Notes: generated by a model not told the origin, from the letters alone. A stretch of 64,000 bases of DNA from Candidatus Moraniibacteriota bacterium (GCA_049303905.1 JBAQNP010000005.1:61655-125654); one strand, 5' to 3'; numbered from the stretch's first letter, positions 7,286 to 58,015 are shown. Translations and numbers: made by a program.

Positions 7286-8230
7286 TTATCCTTTATTTTT
7301 CTTAAGAAAATCATGAATTGCGCGCGCGGAAATTGCACCTTCGGAGGCAGCAGTAATCACTTGGCGAAATTTATCTGAGCCATCTGTGATATCACCAGCT
7401 GAAAAAACTCCTGCTACATTTGTCGCGCCATTTTTTTGAATTTTAATATAACCGCTTTCATCCAATTTGATTCCTAATTCACTAAAATATTCCGTCGCCG
7501 GATCCGAGCCAGCTTCGATAAAAAGTCCGTCTAAGTTTAATTCTTTTGAATTTTTATGTTCTCGGTCTAGTTTTACTTTTTCTAATTTTTGCTGGCCTAA
7601 AATTTCCACTACATTAGTTTCATATAACACTTCAATTTTCGGATTTTTCAAAATTAAATTTACCCAGAATGGCTCAGCGCGAAGTTCGGTTTTTCGATAA
7701 ATTAAATATACCTTCTGCGCTAAATCCGCTAAGTATAATGTAGCGGTCGCCGCGCTATCTGATCCACCAATTACGCCCACGATTTTATTTTTATAAAAAA
7801 ATCCATCACAAGTAGCACAATATGAAACACCTTTCCCAATAAATTCTTTTTCTCCAATAATATTTAATTTTCTTTTTTTTGTGCCAGTCGCTAAAAGAAT
7901 TGTTCGCGCTTGCAAGGTTTTTTTATTCGCTAAGATTATAGAAAAAATATTATTTTCTTTTTTTATTTCTTCCACTATATCTGGCAAAATTTCCACCCCA
8001 TATTTTTTGGCATGATTTCCCCATTTTTGACTAAAATCAAATCCGCTCATATCTTCCATCCCAGGATAGTTGTCAATTTTATGCGTCTCACTAATTTGCC
8101 CACCTAAAATAGCCCCAATAATAAGATGCTTTATCCCGTACCGCGAAGCGTAGATTGACGCTGCAAGTCCTGCCGGCCCCGCGCCAATTATTATTAGATC
8201 GTGAATTTTATTTTCTGTTTCATGTTTCAT
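7286..8230 (-). CDS. trxB: Thioredoxin-disulfide reductase
   Basis: FAD motif GAGPAG, redox-active CATCDG, NAD(P) motif GGSDSA. Confidence 0.9.
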   Translation of the reverse strand: MKHETENKIHDLIIIGAGPAGLAASIYASRYGIKHLIIGAILGGQISETHKIDNYPGMEDMSGFDFSQKWGNHAKKYGVEILPDIVEEIKKENNIFSIILANKKTLQARTILLATGTKKRKLNIIGEKEFIGKGVSYCATCDGFFYKNKIVGVIGGSDSAATATLYLADLAQKVYLIYRKTELRAEPFWVNLILKNPKIEVLYETNVVEILGQQKLEKVKLDREHKNSKELNLDGLFIEAGSDPATEYFSELGIKLDESGYIKIQKNGATNVAGVFSAGDITDGSDKFRQVITAASEGAISARAIHDFLKKNKG

Positions 8231-8248
8231 GCTATATGTTTAATGTTT

Positions 8249-36492: not shown

Positions 36493-37368
36493 TTAATCTT
36501 GAGATTGCTTCGCTTTGCTCGCAATGACAGGTAGGGAGTTGGCTATTTTTTTCCAATCCTCCACGCTTAGTTCTTGTGCTCTTTGTTTTGGCGTAATGCC
36601 AATTTTTTTTAGTTTTTCCTCTACTTCTTTTTTGTCTAATTTGAGACTAGCGGATAAATTATTGACCAGTGTTTTTCTTTTAGACGAAAATCCCGCCTTA
36701 ACAATTCTAAAAAAATTCCCAGCCCCCTTTTCTTTAGTAAGGGGAATGGTTGTGGACGAGGTAGTGGATTGAAAAGGAGTAATTTTTATCACTGCCGAAT
36801 CCACTTCTGGCACTGGAAAAAAACTTTCTTTGTCAACATAAAATAGTAATTCCGGCTTGGCATAGTATTGCACACTTACAGCTAGAATACTCATTTGTCC
36901 GGGATTACTACAAATACGCTCCGCTACTTCCTTTTGCACCATCAGAATCATTTCACTTGGTGGAAACTTAGTTTCTAGAAAGAGTTGGATAATGGGCGAA
37001 GTAATATAATATGGAATATTGGCAACAACTTTGTAATGAATTGTGCCACCTTCTCCTTTGTAAGGAGAGGGGCTGGGGGTGAGGTTTGAAATGATTTCTG
37101 GCAAATTAATTTTTAAAATATCAGCATTTATTATTTCTATTTTTTTACTATCCTTATATTGTTTTTTTAATTTATTAGCCAGAGCTCCATCAACCTCGAT
37201 AGCCAAAACCTTGCCAGCATGCTTAAATAATTTTTCCGTGAGCACACCTTTTCCTGGTCCAATTTCAATTACAAAATTGTCCGATTTTAAGTTGGCGGAT
37301 TGAATAATTTTTTCTAAAACAGTTGTATCTCTTAGAAAATTTTGTCCTAAAGATTTTATTGGTTTCAT
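36493..37368 (-). CDS. rsmA: 16S rRNA (adenine1518/1519-N6)-dimethyltransferase RsmA/KsgA, carrying an in-frame palindromic insertion
   Basis: SLGQNFL, EIGPGKGVLT and NIPYYITSPI are KsgA motifs. The segment LTPSPSPYKGEGG is encoded by the ~40-bp GC-rich palindromic element at 37048-37088. Confidence 0.85.
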   Translation of the reverse strand: MKPIKSLGQNFLRDTTVLEKIIQSANLKSDNFVIEIGPGKGVLTEKLFKHAGKVLAIEVDGALANKLKKQYKDSKKIEIINADILKINLPEIISNLTPSPSPYKGEGGTIHYKVVANIPYYITSPIIQLFLETKFPPSEMILMVQKEVAERICSNPGQMSILAVSVQYYAKPELLFYVDKESFFPVPEVDSAVIKITPFQSTTSSTTIPLTKEKGAGNFFRIVKAGFSSKRKTLVNNLSASLKLDKKEVEEKLKKIGITPKQRAQELSVEDWKKIANSLPVIASKAKQSQD

Positions 37369-42404: not shown

Positions 42405-42441
42405 AAATTCATGAAACATGAAGCATGAAACACGAAACAAT

Positions 42442-46127: not shown

Positions 46128-46215
46128 ATTTGTCATGCTGAATTTATTTCAGCATCTCTTCTTTAGATCCTGAAACCCGCCTGCCGGCGAGGCATGGCAA
46201 GTTCAGGATGACAAG
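46128..46215. terminator. Nested-hairpin terminator element (TGTCATGCTGAA…TTCAGCATCT…ATCCTGAAC…GTTCAGGATGACAA) downstream of pnp
   Basis: A second copy lies at 57951-58015. This copy also carries a GC-rich palindrome insert (CCGCCTGCCGGCGAGGC). Confidence 0.65.
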
Positions 46216-49241: not shown

Positions 49242-49526
49242 CTATCCTTTTAAATCAAGCTTTTTAATCAAAGTTTTGTAGGCTTTTTCGTTGGTTTTTT
49301 GCAAGTATCCCATTAGTTTCTTTCTTTTAGAAACCATTTTCAAAAGTCCTCGGCGAGAATGAAAGTCCTTGGCATTCTTTTTGAGGTGAGTGGTGAGTTT
49401 TTTGATTTGTTCTGAGAAAAGGGCGATTTGGTATTCTGGAGAACCAGTATCCTTTTCGTGGCGAGCTACTTCCTTAGTTACTTTCTGCTTTTGTTTGGCG
49501 CTTAGAGCCATAGTTTTTTCGGCCAA
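49242..49526 (-). CDS. rpsO: 30S ribosomal protein S15
   Basis: …HEKDTGSPEYQIALFSEQIKKLTTHLKKNAKDFHSRRGLLKMVSKR… is the S15 consensus. The rpsO-pnp linkage supports the call. Confidence 0.9.
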   Translation of the reverse strand: MAEKTMALSAKQKQKVTKEVARHEKDTGSPEYQIALFSEQIKKLTTHLKKNAKDFHSRRGLLKMVSKRKKLMGYLQKTNEKAYKTLIKKLDLKG

Positions 49527-50066: not shown

Positions 50067-51161
50067 TTATTTGTGAAGTTTCCGCATTTCTCTAAATTTC
50101 AGGACAACTTCACTTTCTGATTTGTGACGGAAGGCATAAGGACTTCTTTTTCGCGTCACTGAGAAAAAAGCTCCCATCATACCTTGAATGATTTCAAAAG
50201 GTATGAGACCTTTTTCATAAAGATGTATTGCCCCATTAATTTTCCTGAGATAATTTCTGGGCAAAAAAGTTTCTCCTCTAAATTTCAATCCCACGCCGGT
50301 GATTATAATCTGGCGTTTCTCTGCCAAATCAATTACGGCTGATTTTTTGTGACTGATTTGCAGTCCGGCATCAATAATTACTTGGCGAATTTTTTTTCGC
50401 ACTCTTTTTCCGATTGGCTTCAAAGAAGAAAAAGCCAAATCATCAAGAAATCTGGTAAAACGAAGATCATTTTTTTCACAAATCTCCGCTAATGGCGCAT
50501 CTAATAAATACGCCGCAAAGATGTTTGCTAGATCTACTGAAGCTGGCGCGCCGGTTTTTAGTCCCGTGCCAGACTTCAAGAAGCAATATTTTTTCAAGAA
50601 TTTGGAGAGTTTTTTTCTATTTTCCCAAGTTGTCATACAGAGAATATCCAGTAGTCTATCTCCGTCAATGTTATTATAGAAGCTATGAATATCGAGGAGA
50701 TAAAAATATCTTCCGTTCTTATGCTTTTCTACATTTCTCAGTGGACTCCAGCCGGTGATTCCACCGGTGGCAAAACGAAGGCCAACTGGAAGCTCGTTTA
50801 TCAATTCTTTACTTCTCAGAACATTTCGAACAAATGCGCGATGAATTAAGCGCATAGTGAGGTTTGGATTGTGGATAGTCCGAAATTTACGGGTATTTTT
50901 TATTGGATTGAAATCTTCCAACTTATATACTCTGAATTTCGGAGACTGAAAAGTGAAAAAACAGAAATAAAAGTAGAAAATCCAAAAATTCAAACTTGCT
51001 TGAATTTCCTTGACTTCGAAATCCGGTTTTTTTCCGAAAAAAATCTGATATAAATTGTCAAATAACATAGGTCGCCCCCTTATTATTGAATGTTTTTTTA
51101 TTTGTTTTAGTTTAAAGCAGAATAGCAGAACAGGGCATAATTGGCAAGTTTTTGGCGACAA
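50067..51161 (-). CDS. Retron-type reverse transcriptase
   Basis: RT motif 1 RKFRTIHNP. Motif 2 TGGITGWSPLRNVEKH (the retron NAxxH). Motif 3 YFYLLDIHSFY. Motif 4 GLKTGAPASVDLANIF. Motif 5 FLDDLAFS (the YADD-equivalent). The retron VTG motif appears as IITGVG. The true start may be Met32. Confidence 0.7.
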   Translation of the reverse strand: MSPKTCQLCPVLLFCFKLKQIKKHSIIRGRPMLFDNLYQIFFGKKPDFEVKEIQASLNFWIFYFYFCFFTFQSPKFRVYKLEDFNPIKNTRKFRTIHNPNLTMRLIHRAFVRNVLRSKELINELPVGLRFATGGITGWSPLRNVEKHKNGRYFYLLDIHSFYNNIDGDRLLDILCMTTWENRKKLSKFLKKYCFLKSGTGLKTGAPASVDLANIFAAYLLDAPLAEICEKNDLRFTRFLDDLAFSSLKPIGKRVRKKIRQVIIDAGLQISHKKSAVIDLAEKRQIIITGVGLKFRGETFLPRNYLRKINGAIHLYEKGLIPFEIIQGMMGAFFSVTRKRSPYAFRHKSESEVVLKFREMRKLHK

Positions 51162-51190: not shown

Positions 51191-54100
51191 ATGCATGAAA
51201 TATTGGAAAAACTTAATGCTCCGCAAAGAGAGGCGGTGACGACGACGGAAGGGCCGGTTCTCATTATTGCGGGGGCAGGATCGGGGAAAACGCGCGCACT
51301 AACACACAGGGTGGCGTATTTGATTTGTGAAAAAAAGATTAGTCCTCGAAGAATTTTGGCGGTGACTTTTACTAATAAAGCGGCGGGAGAGATGAAGGAA
51401 AGGATTAGGGAATTACTTAGTGCAAATACGCGAATTGATGCGAATGATGCGAATGACCTCACCCCCAGCCCCTCTCCTTATAAAGGAGAGGGTAGCCAAT
51501 ATGATATGCCAACAGTCGGAACTTTTCATTCTATCTGCGTGAGGATTTTGCGTCATGAGATTGAGAAGATGGGATATAAAAGCTCTTTTAATATTTTTGA
51601 TGATCAAGATCAGCTGGCTCTCATGAAAAAAGTGATGAAAGAAATGGAAATTAACACCGATCAATTCAAACCAAAAGCAATTCTTGGCGCAATTTCCAAT
51701 GCGAAAAATGAACTCAAGAGTGCGGAGGAATTTTTAGCAGGAGTGGGTGGATATTTTGAAGAGATGGTGGCCAAGATTTATCTGAACTATCAAAAAAAAT
51801 TGAAAGATCAAGGTGCTTTGGATTTTGATGATATCTTGATGATTATAGTGAAGCTTTTCCAAAAGTTTCCAGAAGTTTTGGAAAAGTATCAGAATTTTTT
51901 TCAGTATATTATGGTAGACGAATATCAAGATACTAACCGCGCGCAATATTTGTTGGTAAAATTGTTGTCGGAAAAATATAAAAATTTGTGTGTGGTGGGT
52001 GATGATTGGCAATGTTTTCCGAGGGGAATAAAAATATCAGTGGATGACAAAAAAACCAAAAATATTGAGAAAATAAGAAAAGGAGATGCAATTATGTCAG
52101 CTTCAGGGCAAGGTGAGATTTGCCCTCAATCGATAGAAAGAAATAAAAAATCTAAATTCAAGGGAGAGCTAATAAAAATCACGACAAAATCAGGTAAAAG
52201 TTTAATGGCTACACCTAACCATATTCTTTTTTCTAAATTATCTTTAAGCGCAAATATATTCTATGTATATTTAATGTATAAAAAAGAGATAGGATATCGT
52301 ATTGGAATGGTAAAGGGAATTAGGATAGTTAAATCAAATGGACTTAATGCGGGATTAAATGTCAGGGCTAATCAAGAACGAGCAGACAGGATGTGGATTT
52401 TGAAAATTTGCCAGACAAAAACCCAAGCGCAATACTGGGAGCAATATCTTGGATTTTTTTATGGTATTCCGACGTTGGTTTTTATTGCGGGCAGTGGAAG
52501 AAAAATGAAATTTGAGCAAAAATATTTGGATGATTTGTATAAAAATATTAATACCTTAGAAAGAGTTAAGAAAATATTTTTAGATTTTAATTTAAATTTT
52601 GATTATCCTCATCATATTCCGCAATCAACCATAAGAAGTGGAATAAAAAGAGTTTCTGTTAACTTTACTTTATTTAGCGATCGCAGAAAAGGAATTTCAA
52701 TTAGCAATTGGGGAAGACACAGGATAAGCATTAATTCGAATGACAAAGAGACTAAAAAAATACTAGAGTTAGCTGGTTTCAAAACGAGAAAAGGAAAGAA
52801 GAATGATTGGCGATTGGAAATTTCTAGCAGAAAATATGAGGAAATGGAAAAGGTTCTAAATAAAATTATAAAAATTATTCCTAATATAGTGGTCACCAAA
52901 AGAGCGCTCTTAGCGGGAGGCAAAAGATTTTATTTTCAACCGGCGGGACATATCAGAGAAACAATGCTCGTGCCTATTTTAGAAAAAGGAAAAATTATTG
53001 AAGAGGAGATAGAAAAAGTTGAAAAAATAAAATATGCTGGTCCGGTTTATGATTTAGATGTAGCAAATGTGCATAATTATATTGCAAATAATTTTGTGGT
53101 GCATAATTCAATTTATGGATGGCGAGGAGCCAATATTCAAAATATTTTAGATTTTGAAAAAGATTATCCGCAGGCGCGCGTGATTAAGTTGGAGCAGAAT
53201 TATCGCTCGACGCAAAATATTTTAGACGCGGCTTATGGTGTGATTTCAAAAAACATTAATCGCAAGGACAAAAAAATTTGGACGGATAATCAAAGCGGGC
53301 ATCTTCTTTCTAGTTTTGAAGCAGAAGATGAAAAAGAAGAAGCACAGTTTATTGTGGATGAGATAAAAAAAATATGTCATCCTGAACTTGTTTCAAAATC
53401 TAATGAGGAGATTCCGGATCAAGTCCGGAATGACAAATACAGATTTTCCGATTTTGTAGTTCTCTATCGAACCAATGCGCAGTCTCGAATGATTGAAGAA
53501 GCGATGCTTCGAAATTCTATTCCGTACCGAATTATTGGCGGGGTAAAATTCTACCAAAGAAAAGAAATTAAAGATGTGATTGCATATCTGCGAGTGATTA
53601 ATAATTTTAATGATGAAACTTCGCTGGAACGAATTATTAATGAACCGAAGCGAGGGATAGGCGATGTAACACTGAGCAAGTGGATAAAAATAGCTCGATT
53701 AGATGAAAATAATTTAATAGATGCAGGGATTAAAATTAAACAGTTGCAAGATACAAAATACAAGATACAAGATACAAGACTGGATGCAATTGTGAAATTT
53801 TGCGAATTCATTCAGAGAATGTCAGAGCTCAAAGAAAAATTATCTCTTACTGATTTTATCCAAAAAATTTATAGTGAATCGGGGTATGAAAGATTTCTTA
53901 TGGACGGAACTGAAGAGGGAGAAATGAGAAATGAAAATGTTAGAGAGCTTCTCACTGTTGCAAAGAAATATGACGAGTATGAACCAATGGAAAGTTTGAA
54001 ATTATTTTTAGAAGAAGTAGCTTTGGTTTCTGACACGGATAATATTGATCAAGCTGTTGATGCGGTACATCTTATGACACTTCACAGTGCTAAAGGTTTA

Positions 54101-54577
54101 GAATTTAAAATTGTTTTTATTGCTGGGCTCGAAGAAGGGATTTTGCCACATTCCAGAAGTATGCTTAGCGACTCTGAAATGGAAGAAGAGAGACGCCTGA
54201 TGTATGTGGGAATCACGCGCGCTATGGAAAAAGTCTATTTGCTTTTTACTCGTATGCGAAATATTTTTGGTTCCACACAGATTAATGCTTCTTCAAGATT
54301 TTTGGAAGATGTGCCGGAGCATCTACTTGAGTCATATAACATGAAGCATGAAACATGTAACAAAAAACAAAGTGATAAGATTAGGCAAGGTTCGGAAAAA
54401 AATGCTTCATGCTTCATGCTTCATGCTTCATGTTTTAAGGACGGTGATCGGGTGCGACATGAGGTTTTTGGTGATGGCTTGATTGTTGCGAGTCAAGGCG
54501 ACATAATCACCGTCGCCTTTTCCAAGGCGGGACTCAAAAAACTTTCTACTTCAATCGCACACTTAGAAAAAATATAA
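51191..54577 (+). CDS. pcrA: ATP-dependent DNA helicase PcrA/UvrD, interrupted by an intein and carrying an in-frame palindromic insertion
   Basis: Walker A AGAGSGKTR. Motifs Ia, II (DEYQD) and IV-VI are present. Motif III reads VVGDDWQ|intein|SIYGWRGA. The N-terminal insert TPSPSPYKGEG is encoded by the palindromic element. Confidence 0.85.
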   Translation: MHEILEKLNAPQREAVTTTEGPVLIIAGAGSGKTRALTHRVAYLICEKKISPRRILAVTFTNKAAGEMKERIRELLSANTRIDANDANDLTPSPSPYKGEGSQYDMPTVGTFHSICVRILRHEIEKMGYKSSFNIFDDQDQLALMKKVMKEMEINTDQFKPKAILGAISNAKNELKSAEEFLAGVGGYFEEMVAKIYLNYQKKLKDQGALDFDDILMIIVKLFQKFPEVLEKYQNFFQYIMVDEYQDTNRAQYLLVKLLSEKYKNLCVVGDDWQCFPRGIKISVDDKKTKNIEKIRKGDAIMSASGQGEICPQSIERNKKSKFKGELIKITTKSGKSLMATPNHILFSKLSLSANIFYVYLMYKKEIGYRIGMVKGIRIVKSNGLNAGLNVRANQERADRMWILKICQTKTQAQYWEQYLGFFYGIPTLVFIAGSGRKMKFEQKYLDDLYKNINTLERVKKIFLDFNLNFDYPHHIPQSTIRSGIKRVSVNFTLFSDRRKGISISNWGRHRISINSNDKETKKILELAGFKTRKGKKNDWRLEISSRKYEEMEKVLNKIIKIIPNIVVTKRALLAGGKRFYFQPAGHIRETMLVPILEKGKIIEEEIEKVEKIKYAGPVYDLDVANVHNYIANNFVVHNSIYGWRGANIQNILDFEKDYPQARVIKLEQNYRSTQNILDAAYGVISKNINRKDKKIWTDNQSGHLLSSFEAEDEKEEAQFIVDEIKKICHPELVSKSNEEIPDQVRNDKYRFSDFVVLYRTNAQSRMIEEAMLRNSIPYRIIGGVKFYQRKEIKDVIAYLRVINNFNDETSLERIINEPKRGIGDVTLSKWIKIARLDENNLIDAGIKIKQLQDTKYKIQDTRLDAIVKFCEFIQRMSELKEKLSLTDFIQKIYSESGYERFLMDGTEEGEMRNENVRELLTVAKKYDEYEPMESLKLFLEEVALVSDTDNIDQAVDAVHLMTLHSAKGLEFKIVFIAGLEEGILPHSRSMLSDSEMEEERRLMYVGITRAMEKVYLLFTRMRNIFGSTQINASSRFLEDVPEHLLESYNMKHETCNKKQSDKIRQGSEKNASCFMLHASCFKDGDRVRHEVFGDGLIVASQGDIITVAFSKAGLKKLSTSIAHLEKI
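52013..53107 (+). mobile_element. Intein (365 aa) inside pcrA motif III, with a central endonuclease-like region
   Basis: Starts at Cys1 (CFPRG…). Block B TPNH. C-terminal blocks VYDLDVANVHNYIANNFVVHN followed by +1 Ser. Excision restores the canonical GDDxQSIYGWRGA. Confidence 0.8.
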
Positions 54578-57126: not shown

Positions 57127-57214
57127 CAGCATAAGAAATATGATAGAGTTAAAGAGTCGAGAAAGTACATTTAAAAAGATAATGGGACCATAGCTCAGTG
57201 GTAGAGCGCGCGGC

Positions 57215-57589
57215 TCAAGTAAATAATTCTAAACTGTGTTTTGGATGATGGAGTTCGGCATGACAATTGTTGCAAACAAGGATGCACTTTTTAAGTTCGG
57301 TATCAATCCAGGAAAGTTTGCGATTTGACAGGGATCTGATATCAAGCTGGAAATGTTTTTCTTTTGGATTTTTGTGATGAAAAGTCAAGGCGGCATAATT
57401 TTTTTTATACCCGCAGACACAGCAACATCCTCCAAGTTTTTTCACACAACTAATCTTTCTCTTCCAGCCTCGGGCTTGTTGAAGATGATAGGATTGGTTG
57501 ACGCTATTTTTGCAAGTGGGAGAACAATAACGTGTTTGTCTGCCCCCAAGAGGGTGATTACAAACTACGCAGGTTATGATTTTATTCAT
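57215..57589 (-). CDS. HNH endonuclease (homing-endonuclease-like), encoded antisense inside the tRNA intron
   Basis: Zn-ribbon CVVCNH…YCSPTC. HNH core CCCVCGY…LTFHHKNP…KH…N…LVCNNCHAELHH. Confidence 0.6.
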   Translation of the reverse strand: MNKIITCVVCNHPLGGRQTRYCSPTCKNSVNQSYHLQQARGWKRKISCVKKLGGCCCVCGYKKNYAALTFHHKNPKEKHFQLDIRSLSNRKLSWIDTELKKCILVCNNCHAELHHPKHSLELFT

Positions 57590-57838
57590 AATCTAATTAT
57601 AACACAAAATGAATAATTGCAACAGGGCTGTTTGAGAAGTAATTTTCAAATGAATTCTGTCAAATTCGGGGAAATCTTAAGTTTTTATTTTATATAAAAA
57701 AATGACAATCCCGAGCCAAGTCCCGACGCTAAGTCGGGAAAGGTGTAGAGACTAGATGGCAGACATCCCGAGTATTTGGGATGAAGGGATAGTCCAGCTT
57801 ACAAATTCGAAAGAAGTTGCGAAAGCAATAGTGAGATG
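57216..57838 (+). mobile_element. Group I intron (IC3-like, tRNA-intron type) with an antisense HNH ORF
   Basis: The core matches cyanobacterial-type tRNA introns: CAATCCCGAGCCAAGTCC, GGGAAAGGTGTAGAGACTAGATGGCAG, and the P7 pair AGACUA/UAGUCC. It ends in omega-G at 57838. Confidence 0.65.
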
Positions 57839-57884
57839 CATAACCGCTTGGTCGAAGGTTCGAATCCTTCTGGTCCCACAAAAA

Positions 57885-57920: not shown

Positions 57921-57950
57921 TCTGGAATAATATAATTTTGTCATGCTGAA

Positions 57951-58015
57951 CTTGTTTCAGCATCTTAATCGTTAGAGATCCTGAAACGAGTTCAGGATGA
58001 CAATCGAAGATTAAT
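57951..58015. repeat. Second copy of the TGTCATGCTGAA…GTTCAGGATGACAA nested-hairpin element
   Basis: It aligns with 46128-46215 minus the GC-rich insert. Confidence 0.75.

Follow-up and report, generated by a model that had tools for sequence, protein, structure and literature searches.

A class 1 intein in motif III of a PcrA-like helicase from Candidatus Moraniibacteriota, with a conserved and putatively GIY-YIG-like central domain

A helicase gene in a 64,000-nucleotide stretch of Candidatus Moraniibacteriota DNA (GCA_049303905.1, JBAQNP010000005.1:61655-125654; the whole stretch is called the window below) contains 365 codons that split its motif III. What is this insert, and what does its long central part do? 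An original prediction, made from the DNA sequence, had described it as an intein in PcrA/UvrD with a central homing endonuclease that was possibly degenerate. Here we report that the insert is almost certainly an intein, as judged from its sequence and a structure model, and that its central domain represents a large and conserved family, for which we discuss a GIY-YIG-like nuclease function.

The insert and its splicing domain

The insertion point separates the Gln from the Ser in motif III of this SF1 helicase, where the translated junctions read YKNLCVVGDDWQ/C...VVHN/SIYGWRGANIQ. The precursor protein is 100% identical to the NCBI entry P0156, which comes from a metagenome-assembled genome of Candidatus Moraniibacteriota. 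The predicted limits of the insert, 52013-53107, were exact to the base. When the insert was removed, the remaining 763-aa protein aligned to Geobacillus PcrA (1pjr) with no gap at the junction (E 5.6e-200; vgddwqsiygwrga against vgdadqsiyrwrga), and the match to the PcrA model TIGR01073 changed from 844.5 bits in two stretches to 870.9 bits in a single one (protein residues 5-760 to model positions 2-724 of 725). Both results bear out the claim that excision restores motif III. Neither the unspliced nor the spliced host reached the TIGR01073 equivalog cut-off of 911.2 bits, and we therefore refer to the host as a PcrA-like UvrD-family helicase. TIGR01073 was nonetheless the best family for it, and both UvrD helicase domains were present (PF00580, 284 bits; PF13361, 245.7 bits). 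Annotation pipelines name such proteins just 'UvrD-helicase domain-containing', and the insert lowers the PcrA score further below the equivalog threshold. The GC content was 31.4% in the intein and 39.5% and 36.6% in the N- and C-exteins, respectively.

The insert alone scored above the cut-offs of four curated models, namely PF14890 Intein_splicing (63.5 bits; cut-off 35.8), PF01079 Hint (31.8; 29.7), TIGR01445 for the intein N-terminal region (30.3; 24.5) and TIGR01443 for the C-terminal region (20.0; 15.6). Its C-terminal 40-60 residues aligned by phmmer to the solved inteins Pho RadA, MJ0781 KlbA and NpuDnaB, and an AlphaFold model (pLDDT 83.6, pTM 0.80) contained the Hint fold. The set of class 1 splicing residues was complete (Cys1, Thr67/His70, His364, Asn365 and Ser+1). 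The original prediction had named the Cys start, the TxxH block B (TPNH) and the terminal HN followed by Ser, and all of them were found where it had placed them; the C-terminal blocks VYDLDV...NFVVHN were likewise recovered, with TIGR01443 and PF14890 above their cut-offs. These scores contradict the second objection that the prediction had raised against itself, namely that HMMs might miss the motif blocks. From these sequence features, the intein is of the canonical, class 1 type and is predicted to be splicing-competent.

The conserved residues, read in the light of known intein chemistry, predict four steps for the 1128-aa precursor: an N-S acyl shift at Cys1, transesterification onto Ser+1, cyclisation of Asn365 with help from His364 and from His70 of block B, and lastly an O-N shift. 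The products would be the 763-aa helicase and the free 365-aa intein. The predicted ligated product contains GDDWQSIYGWRGA, with VVGDDWQSIYGWR as the junction peptide. The uninterrupted motif III site would read GGTGATGATTGGCAA/TCAATTTATGGATGGCGA in DNA, and its version with Gly at the +1 position, carried by the intein-less loci L081 and L082, is GGAATATATTCT. A dead intein, in which splicing has been lost so that the gene is a pseudogene or the helicase tolerates the 365-aa insertion, might be considered for a metagenome-assembled genome, but we regard it as highly improbable: the splicing residues are intact in an uninterrupted open reading frame (ORF), and both exteins are strongly constrained (dN 0.21, dS saturated). 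Moreover, motif III is, to our knowledge, conserved in all SF1 helicases, so a helicase with 365 unspliced residues inside it is unlikely to work.

The central domain and its family

A module of about 220 aa lies between Hint blocks B and F. Residues ~78-300 had no match in Pfam, NCBIfam, PHROGs or PDB sequences, whether single sequences or profiles were used. LAGLIDADG is the usual intein endonuclease, and no LAGLIDADG match (PF14528, PF00961) was obtained at E<=10 in the window copy or in 7 + 44 relatives; nor did the catalytic part show a LAGLIDADG motif or a matching fold. The same test works for other inteins of this host family, since PF14528 does match those of P0144. HNH (PF01844) did not match the insert or the relatives scanned. 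The comparison with PF14528 proposed in the original prediction thus gave a negative result, and no other endonuclease family matched the insert.

The central-domain profile nevertheless identified a large family. An exhaustive HMM search returned 1727 cluster representatives at E<=1e-3, a lower bound with clusters at 50% identity, of which 970 had E<=1e-10 and 223 had E<=1e-30; a word-indexed protein search with the insert, which found 6 relatives only, grossly underestimated this number. Typical members are ~1000-1100 aa long and have the domain at ~330-550. The hosts were UvrD-family helicases in 5 of the 6 cases examined, the sixth (P0119) matching the intein model only, and some hosts were interrupted elsewhere by additional inteins, which had LAGLIDADG or DUF559/Vsr-like domains. 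Among 156 sequences (the 150 best matches and the six relatives found first), 113 contained GDxxQ/C and 105 contained HN/S or HN/C followed by IYxWRGA; the median insert length was 363 aa (interquartile range 359-367). The domain also occurred in inteins after motif II (LVDEAQDLNK/C) and at ...LIKHN/C, in giant UvrD-like proteins. Six such giants of 1800-2500 aa (P0058, P0085, P0089, P0090, P0116 and P0149) had it in two or three inteins apiece, placed at separate helicase motifs (II, III and the site after ...LIKHN); P0084 and P0144 have, alongside this domain, inteins that contain DUF559/Vsr-like or LAGLIDADG domains. With one peptide pattern, 190 loci were obtained from species-representative genomes; the 80 of these that were kept were mostly from Saccharibacteria and other Patescibacteria, with scattered loci in Clostridia, Desulfosporosinus, Bdellovibrionales, Anaerolineales and Bacteroidales. 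The family is large and unannotated, and apparently specific to helicase inteins. Separately, phrog_10829, an unannotated phage protein family, was matched by 3 of 44 core sequences (best E 7e-4), suggesting that a related domain may exist in phage proteins.

Thirteen residues (Y86, M88, G94, R96, G98, R118, E122, W128, E143, P153, F157, P199 and H200) were at least 95% conserved in 149 sequences, and the window copy keeps all of them. Between the window and the intein-bearing locus L083, dN was 0.152 in the core and 0.160 in the remaining insert; the exteins had a dN of 0.21 and the N-terminal Hint part one of 0.30. The dN/dS ratio was semi-quantitative only, dS being saturated or undefined. 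The central domain is not degenerate; it is conserved and under selection. The original prediction was thus borne out as to a central module of endonuclease size, here a putative nuclease, whereas the suggested degeneracy is contradicted by the intact residues and the low dN.

In the structure model, the core comprised a hairpin (83-90/94-101), a small extra hairpin, a helix (114-121), a strand (126-133) and a helix (136-150), followed by two helices and a beta-beta-alpha-beta-alpha-beta unit (215-301). The subdomain of residues 215-300 weakly resembled the C-terminal, DNA-binding domain of T4 MotA. Judged from the model, the best structural relatives of the central domain appear to be GIY-YIG nucleases, and these were again the first non-Hint matches for an independent full-length model. 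At the sequence level, PF01541 GIY-YIG was the Pfam family matched by most core sequences, with 3 of 44 (best E 0.019, below the gathering score) compared with 1-2 of 44 for every other family; an NCBIfam scan of the same 44 sequences gave single-member noise only. The hhalign and hmmsearch alignments to UvrC were in register at the GIY Tyr (VYLMY/GVYRMY), the YIG Gly (YRIG/IYVG) and the catalytic Glu (EAxYxE/TEALLLE). In intein numbering, the near-invariant residues that line up with UvrC are Y86, G98, R118 (or R104) and E143.

Homing and alternative readings

The nine closest relatives of the host (P0157-P0165; 78-89% identity, 721-793 aa) all lack the insert. The possibility that relatives carry the segment as ordinary protein, which the original prediction had raised against itself, is contradicted by these proteins. 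Among 119 other best PcrA relatives, six were of intein-containing size (P0187, P0204, P0233, P0236, P0260 and P0272). The intein-less loci L081 and L082 and the intein-bearing L083 share the gene order NYN, S15, PcrA, LysM/CHAP and tyrosine recombinase. Five of the closest intein-less proteins were aligned (P0157-P0160 and P0162) and read GDDWQ/GIYSWRGA, with Gly at the +1 nucleophile position, whereas the window and the intein-bearing P0204 have SIYGWRGA after the junction. The Gly codon is GGA or GGC in L081 and L082 at the equivalent of 53108-53110; most PcrA/UvrD proteins and all intein-bearing alleles have Ser. Gly cannot serve as a splicing nucleophile, and the Gly+1 allele may be unable to host the intein or to be its target. 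That the Gly+1 alleles withstand invasion in the nearest relatives, both as cleavage targets and as non-nucleophiles, is speculation.

The four codons after the insertion point resembled those of the intein-bearing L083 more closely than those of the intein-less L081 and L082 (Table 1), whereas the 15-nt windows flanking this 12-nt patch on both sides were identical to L081 at 13-15 of 15 positions. At the background mismatch rate, the excess of mismatches to L081 in the patch had a binomial P of 0.004. Selection for Ser+1 accounts for the first codon only. The simplest reading of this sequence pattern is that the patch may be a short co-conversion tract, which fits the expectation after homing.

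We favour a canonical intein that carries a GIY-YIG-like homing endonuclease module, and consider this combined reading reasonably likely. For the module itself, the alignments and structure models make it more likely than not that it is a nuclease of the GIY-YIG fold that acts in homing. It would consist of a GIY-YIG-like catalytic core (Y86, R96/G98, R118, E122 and E143), a helical linker with the Pro-His pair and an alpha/beta subdomain with a probable role in DNA binding. The endonuclease would cleave pcrA/uvrD alleles that lack the intein close to their motif III codons, and copying of the intein, with a few adjacent bases, would follow when the break is repaired on the intein-bearing template. 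A broader proposal is tentative and less likely than not: that the module represents a family of homing endonucleases that reside in inteins, have not been described before and descend from the GIY-YIG fold, with a remodelled active site (Tyr...Arg-x-Gly...Arg-x3-Glu...Glu plus the distal Pro-His) and a MotA-like DNA-binding domain, specialised in conserved UvrD-family motifs (II, III and at least one further site) and abundant in Patescibacteria, especially Saccharibacteria.

Several results weigh against a GIY-YIG homing endonuclease. PF01541 did not match the window copy even at E<=10, and phmmer and profile hmmsearch with the 7- and 44-sequence alignments gave zero matches to PDB sequences at E<=10. 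In hhalign, the core profile gave a probability of 2% against UvrC, in a comparison underpowered by a UvrC profile of 3 non-redundant sequences, which was shallow because the database search returned only close gammaproteobacterial UvrCs, and of 0.06% against an unverified I-TevI sequence. The family HMM scored a sub-significant 2-5 bits on UvrC domains, compared with -0.5 on reversed controls, and did not score on I-TevI. The structural evidence is modest too: in a Foldseek search of PDB, no match reached E<=1e-3 and the top 50 did not include a GIY-YIG protein, the best local matches being eIF1 and the T4 MotA C-terminal domain. The YIG motif is non-canonical, reading Y/F-R-I-G, so that either R96 takes the slot of the YIG Tyr or the slot moves to Y/F95; an extra hairpin lies between this motif and the helix with the invariant Arg, which leaves R104 and R118 indistinguishable as the catalytic Arg; and the Asn of GIY-YIG families has no conserved equivalent in the central-domain family. 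Finally, intein identity correlated with extein identity (Spearman 0.72), and for the nearest intein, that of P0204, intein and host are each 73% identical to those of the window. This correlation is also compatible with mostly vertical descent and repeated precise loss. Because the two identities track each other, any transfer would have occurred within the clade, or descent would have been largely vertical; within-clade transfer and vertical descent with loss are each part of a homing cycle. Recent long-range horizontal transfer was considered as well, and is ruled out by the similar divergence of intein and extein.

Some of these points would also be explained by a real intein whose module is not a nuclease but has a DNA-binding, structural or regulatory role, such as tuning of splicing; the intein would then be immobile and vertically inherited, and its absences would reflect loss. 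The missing significant match to any nuclease family, the non-catalytic nature of the best local Foldseek matches (T4 MotA being DNA-binding) and the identity correlation all fit this alternative. So does the uniform retention of the domain across a very large family: the homing-cycle model predicts frequent endonuclease decay, and the retention is a question for that model. The co-conversion-like patch and the register of the UvrC alignments point towards homing by a GIY-YIG-like nuclease, and we consider a non-nuclease module unlikely, if deserving of attention. A homing endonuclease of another fold, either a highly diverged LAGLIDADG or a wholly new one, would make the GIY-YIG likeness a chance feature of a small alpha/beta unit; with the LAGLIDADG searches negative and the GIY-YIG matches recurring in two models, we judge this improbable. 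The GIY-YIG-like homing endonuclease remains our preferred reading.

Table 1. Coordinates of the precursor gene, the intein and its parts, and the codons after the insertion point (all positions count from the first nucleotide of the window)
Feature	Position	Strand	Basis or remark
Gene for the 1128-aa precursor (intein-containing PcrA-like UvrD-family helicase)	51191-54577	+	ORF call, HMMs
N-extein, 274 aa, ending with the first half of motif III (...VVGDDWQ)	51191-52012	+	
Intein, 365 aa, Cys1 to His364-Asn365	52013-53107	+	
N-terminal half of Hint splicing domain, intein residues 1-77 (Cys1, 52013-52015)	52013-52243	+	
Block B, TPNH, residues 67-70	52211-52222	+	T67, P68 and H70 invariant among first 7 relatives
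Putative GIY-YIG-like nuclease core, residues 80-160	52250-52492	+	hairpin, extra hairpin, helix, strand, helix
Near-invariant core residues	Y86, 52268-52270; R96, 52298-52300; G98; R118, 52364-52366; E122, 52376-52378; W128; E143, 52439-52441; P153; F157		
Helical linker, residues 161-214	52493-52654	+	near-invariant P199-H200 (52607-52612); partly low pLDDT
C-terminal alpha/beta subdomain of the insert, residues 215-300	52655-52912	+	candidate DNA-binding module
C-terminal half of Hint domain, residues 301-365	52913-53107	+	TIGR01443, PDB intein alignments, structure model
Block F, VYDLDV, residues 345-350	53045-53062	+	
Block G, NFVVHN, residues 360-365	53090-53107	+	
C-extein, 489 aa + stop, starting with the second half of motif III (SIYGWRGA)	53108-54577	+	
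Putative co-conversion tract, Ser+1 codon and three codons, TCA ATT TAT GGA	53108-53119	+	allele comparison
Same four codons in L083 (intein-bearing), TCA ATT TAT GGT			11/12 identical to window, including synonymous ATT
Same four codons in L081 (intein-less), GGA ATA TAT TCT			6/12 identical to window
Same four codons in L082 (intein-less), GGC ATA TAT TCG			6/12 identical to window

Neighbouring elements and comparison with known systems

Other elements were observed around the gene. An ORF of 364 aa at 50067-51161 (-) has a reverse transcriptase domain (PF00078 RVT_1, 50.9 bits) and sits between the S15 gene (49242-49526) and pcrA. L082, the closest relative, has just 157 bp in this interval, so the ORF is an extra insertion beside the intein-bearing gene. 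A tRNA gene at ~57185-57880 (+) is apparently split in the anticodon loop by a group I intron of ~620 nt (5' half ~57185-57216, 3' half ~57836-57880; Rfam Intron_gpI core 57605-57819, 81.7 bits). Joining the halves gave an ARAGORN tRNA call, possibly Met/CAU. The intron holds an antisense Cys/His-rich ORF of 124 aa (57215-57589, -), whose HNH match was below threshold (E 0.093). No canonical GIY-YIG protein is encoded in the window.

The host gene itself contains hypervariable low-complexity loops at 51425-51505, 53375-53446 and 54341-54436 (NTRIDANDANDLTPSPSPYKGEGSQYD; CHPELVSKSNEEIPDQVRNDKY; HETCNKK...ASCFMLHASCF), which are in-frame copies of small palindromic repeats found elsewhere in the window (37052-37085, 57939-57959, 57982-58002, 46198-46213, 42410-42429 and 8211-8233). 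The orthologue P0159 has an HPELVS..IPDQVRNDK peptide at a different variable site. Rickettsia palindromic elements insert in frame into genes, and the repeats in pcrA resemble them.

The present intein resembles class 1 inteins of replication and repair ATPases in its Hint fold, Cys1, TxxH, HN with a Ser/Cys nucleophile and patchy distribution; like them, it interrupts a P-loop helicase within a catalytic motif and has a domain the size of an endonuclease between blocks B and F. UvrD is a listed intein host: Novikova et al. 2016 (PMC4760082) count 16 inteins in UvrD, from Acidobacteria, Actinobacteria, Deinococcus-Thermus, Firmicutes and Proteobacteria. Since UvrD-type helicase inteins are already known, the intein itself is ordinary. 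It differs from the DnaB/PcrA/UvrD inteins that the review PMC5874633 places at the P-loop by lying in motif III, and from class 1 UvrD/PcrA inteins by its host, a member of the candidate phyla radiation (CPR; Moranbacteria), and by a central domain that is neither LAGLIDADG nor HNH. No report of UvrD inteins in CPR bacteria was found in the literature searched, InBase and subscription literature aside.

The LAGLIDADG-containing inteins PI-SceI, PI-PfuI and PI-MtuI share with it the Hint-endonuclease-Hint order (blocks B/F) and the presumed homing life cycle, whereas the present module has no LAGLIDADG motif, Pfam match or matching catalytic fold. Compared with the GIY-YIG homing endonucleases I-TevI and I-BmoI and the GIY-YIG repair nucleases UvrC (N-terminal domain) and Slx1, it has no significant sequence similarity and its YIG motif is altered as described above; further differences from GIY-YIG nucleases are that the extra beta hairpin separates strand 2 from the Arg helix, that invariant E122, D125 and W128 are added and that the family Asn is missing. 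The homing endonucleases known for the GIY-YIG type are either encoded in introns or free-standing, whereas this module is inside an intein. Dassa et al. 2009 (PMC2677866) stated that the GIY-YIG type was not known in inteins, and proposed fractured genes, in which split inteins occur together with separate genes for GIY-YIG or Vsr-like endonucleases, as a route to new intein endonuclease domains. No later report of a GIY-YIG-type intein endonuclease was found in the same literature, with the same two sources set aside. The intein described here is like those split systems in having Hint halves with a GIY-YIG-type endonuclease, here a putative one, in a gene of DNA metabolism, and differs in that the nuclease-like domain is fused in frame within a contiguous intein rather than encoded by a separate gene.

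The novelty lies in the central domain, a large family that curated profile libraries do not see and that is probably a remodelled GIY-YIG homing endonuclease. If this is true, GIY-YIG would be added to the homing endonuclease folds known for inteins, and a natural GIY-YIG core fused inside a Hint domain would bear on how inteins acquire endonucleases, possibly as the fused product at the end of the route that Dassa et al. put forward. The family would also represent new long-target nucleases, directed at SF1 helicase codons for motifs II and III, which are highly conserved.

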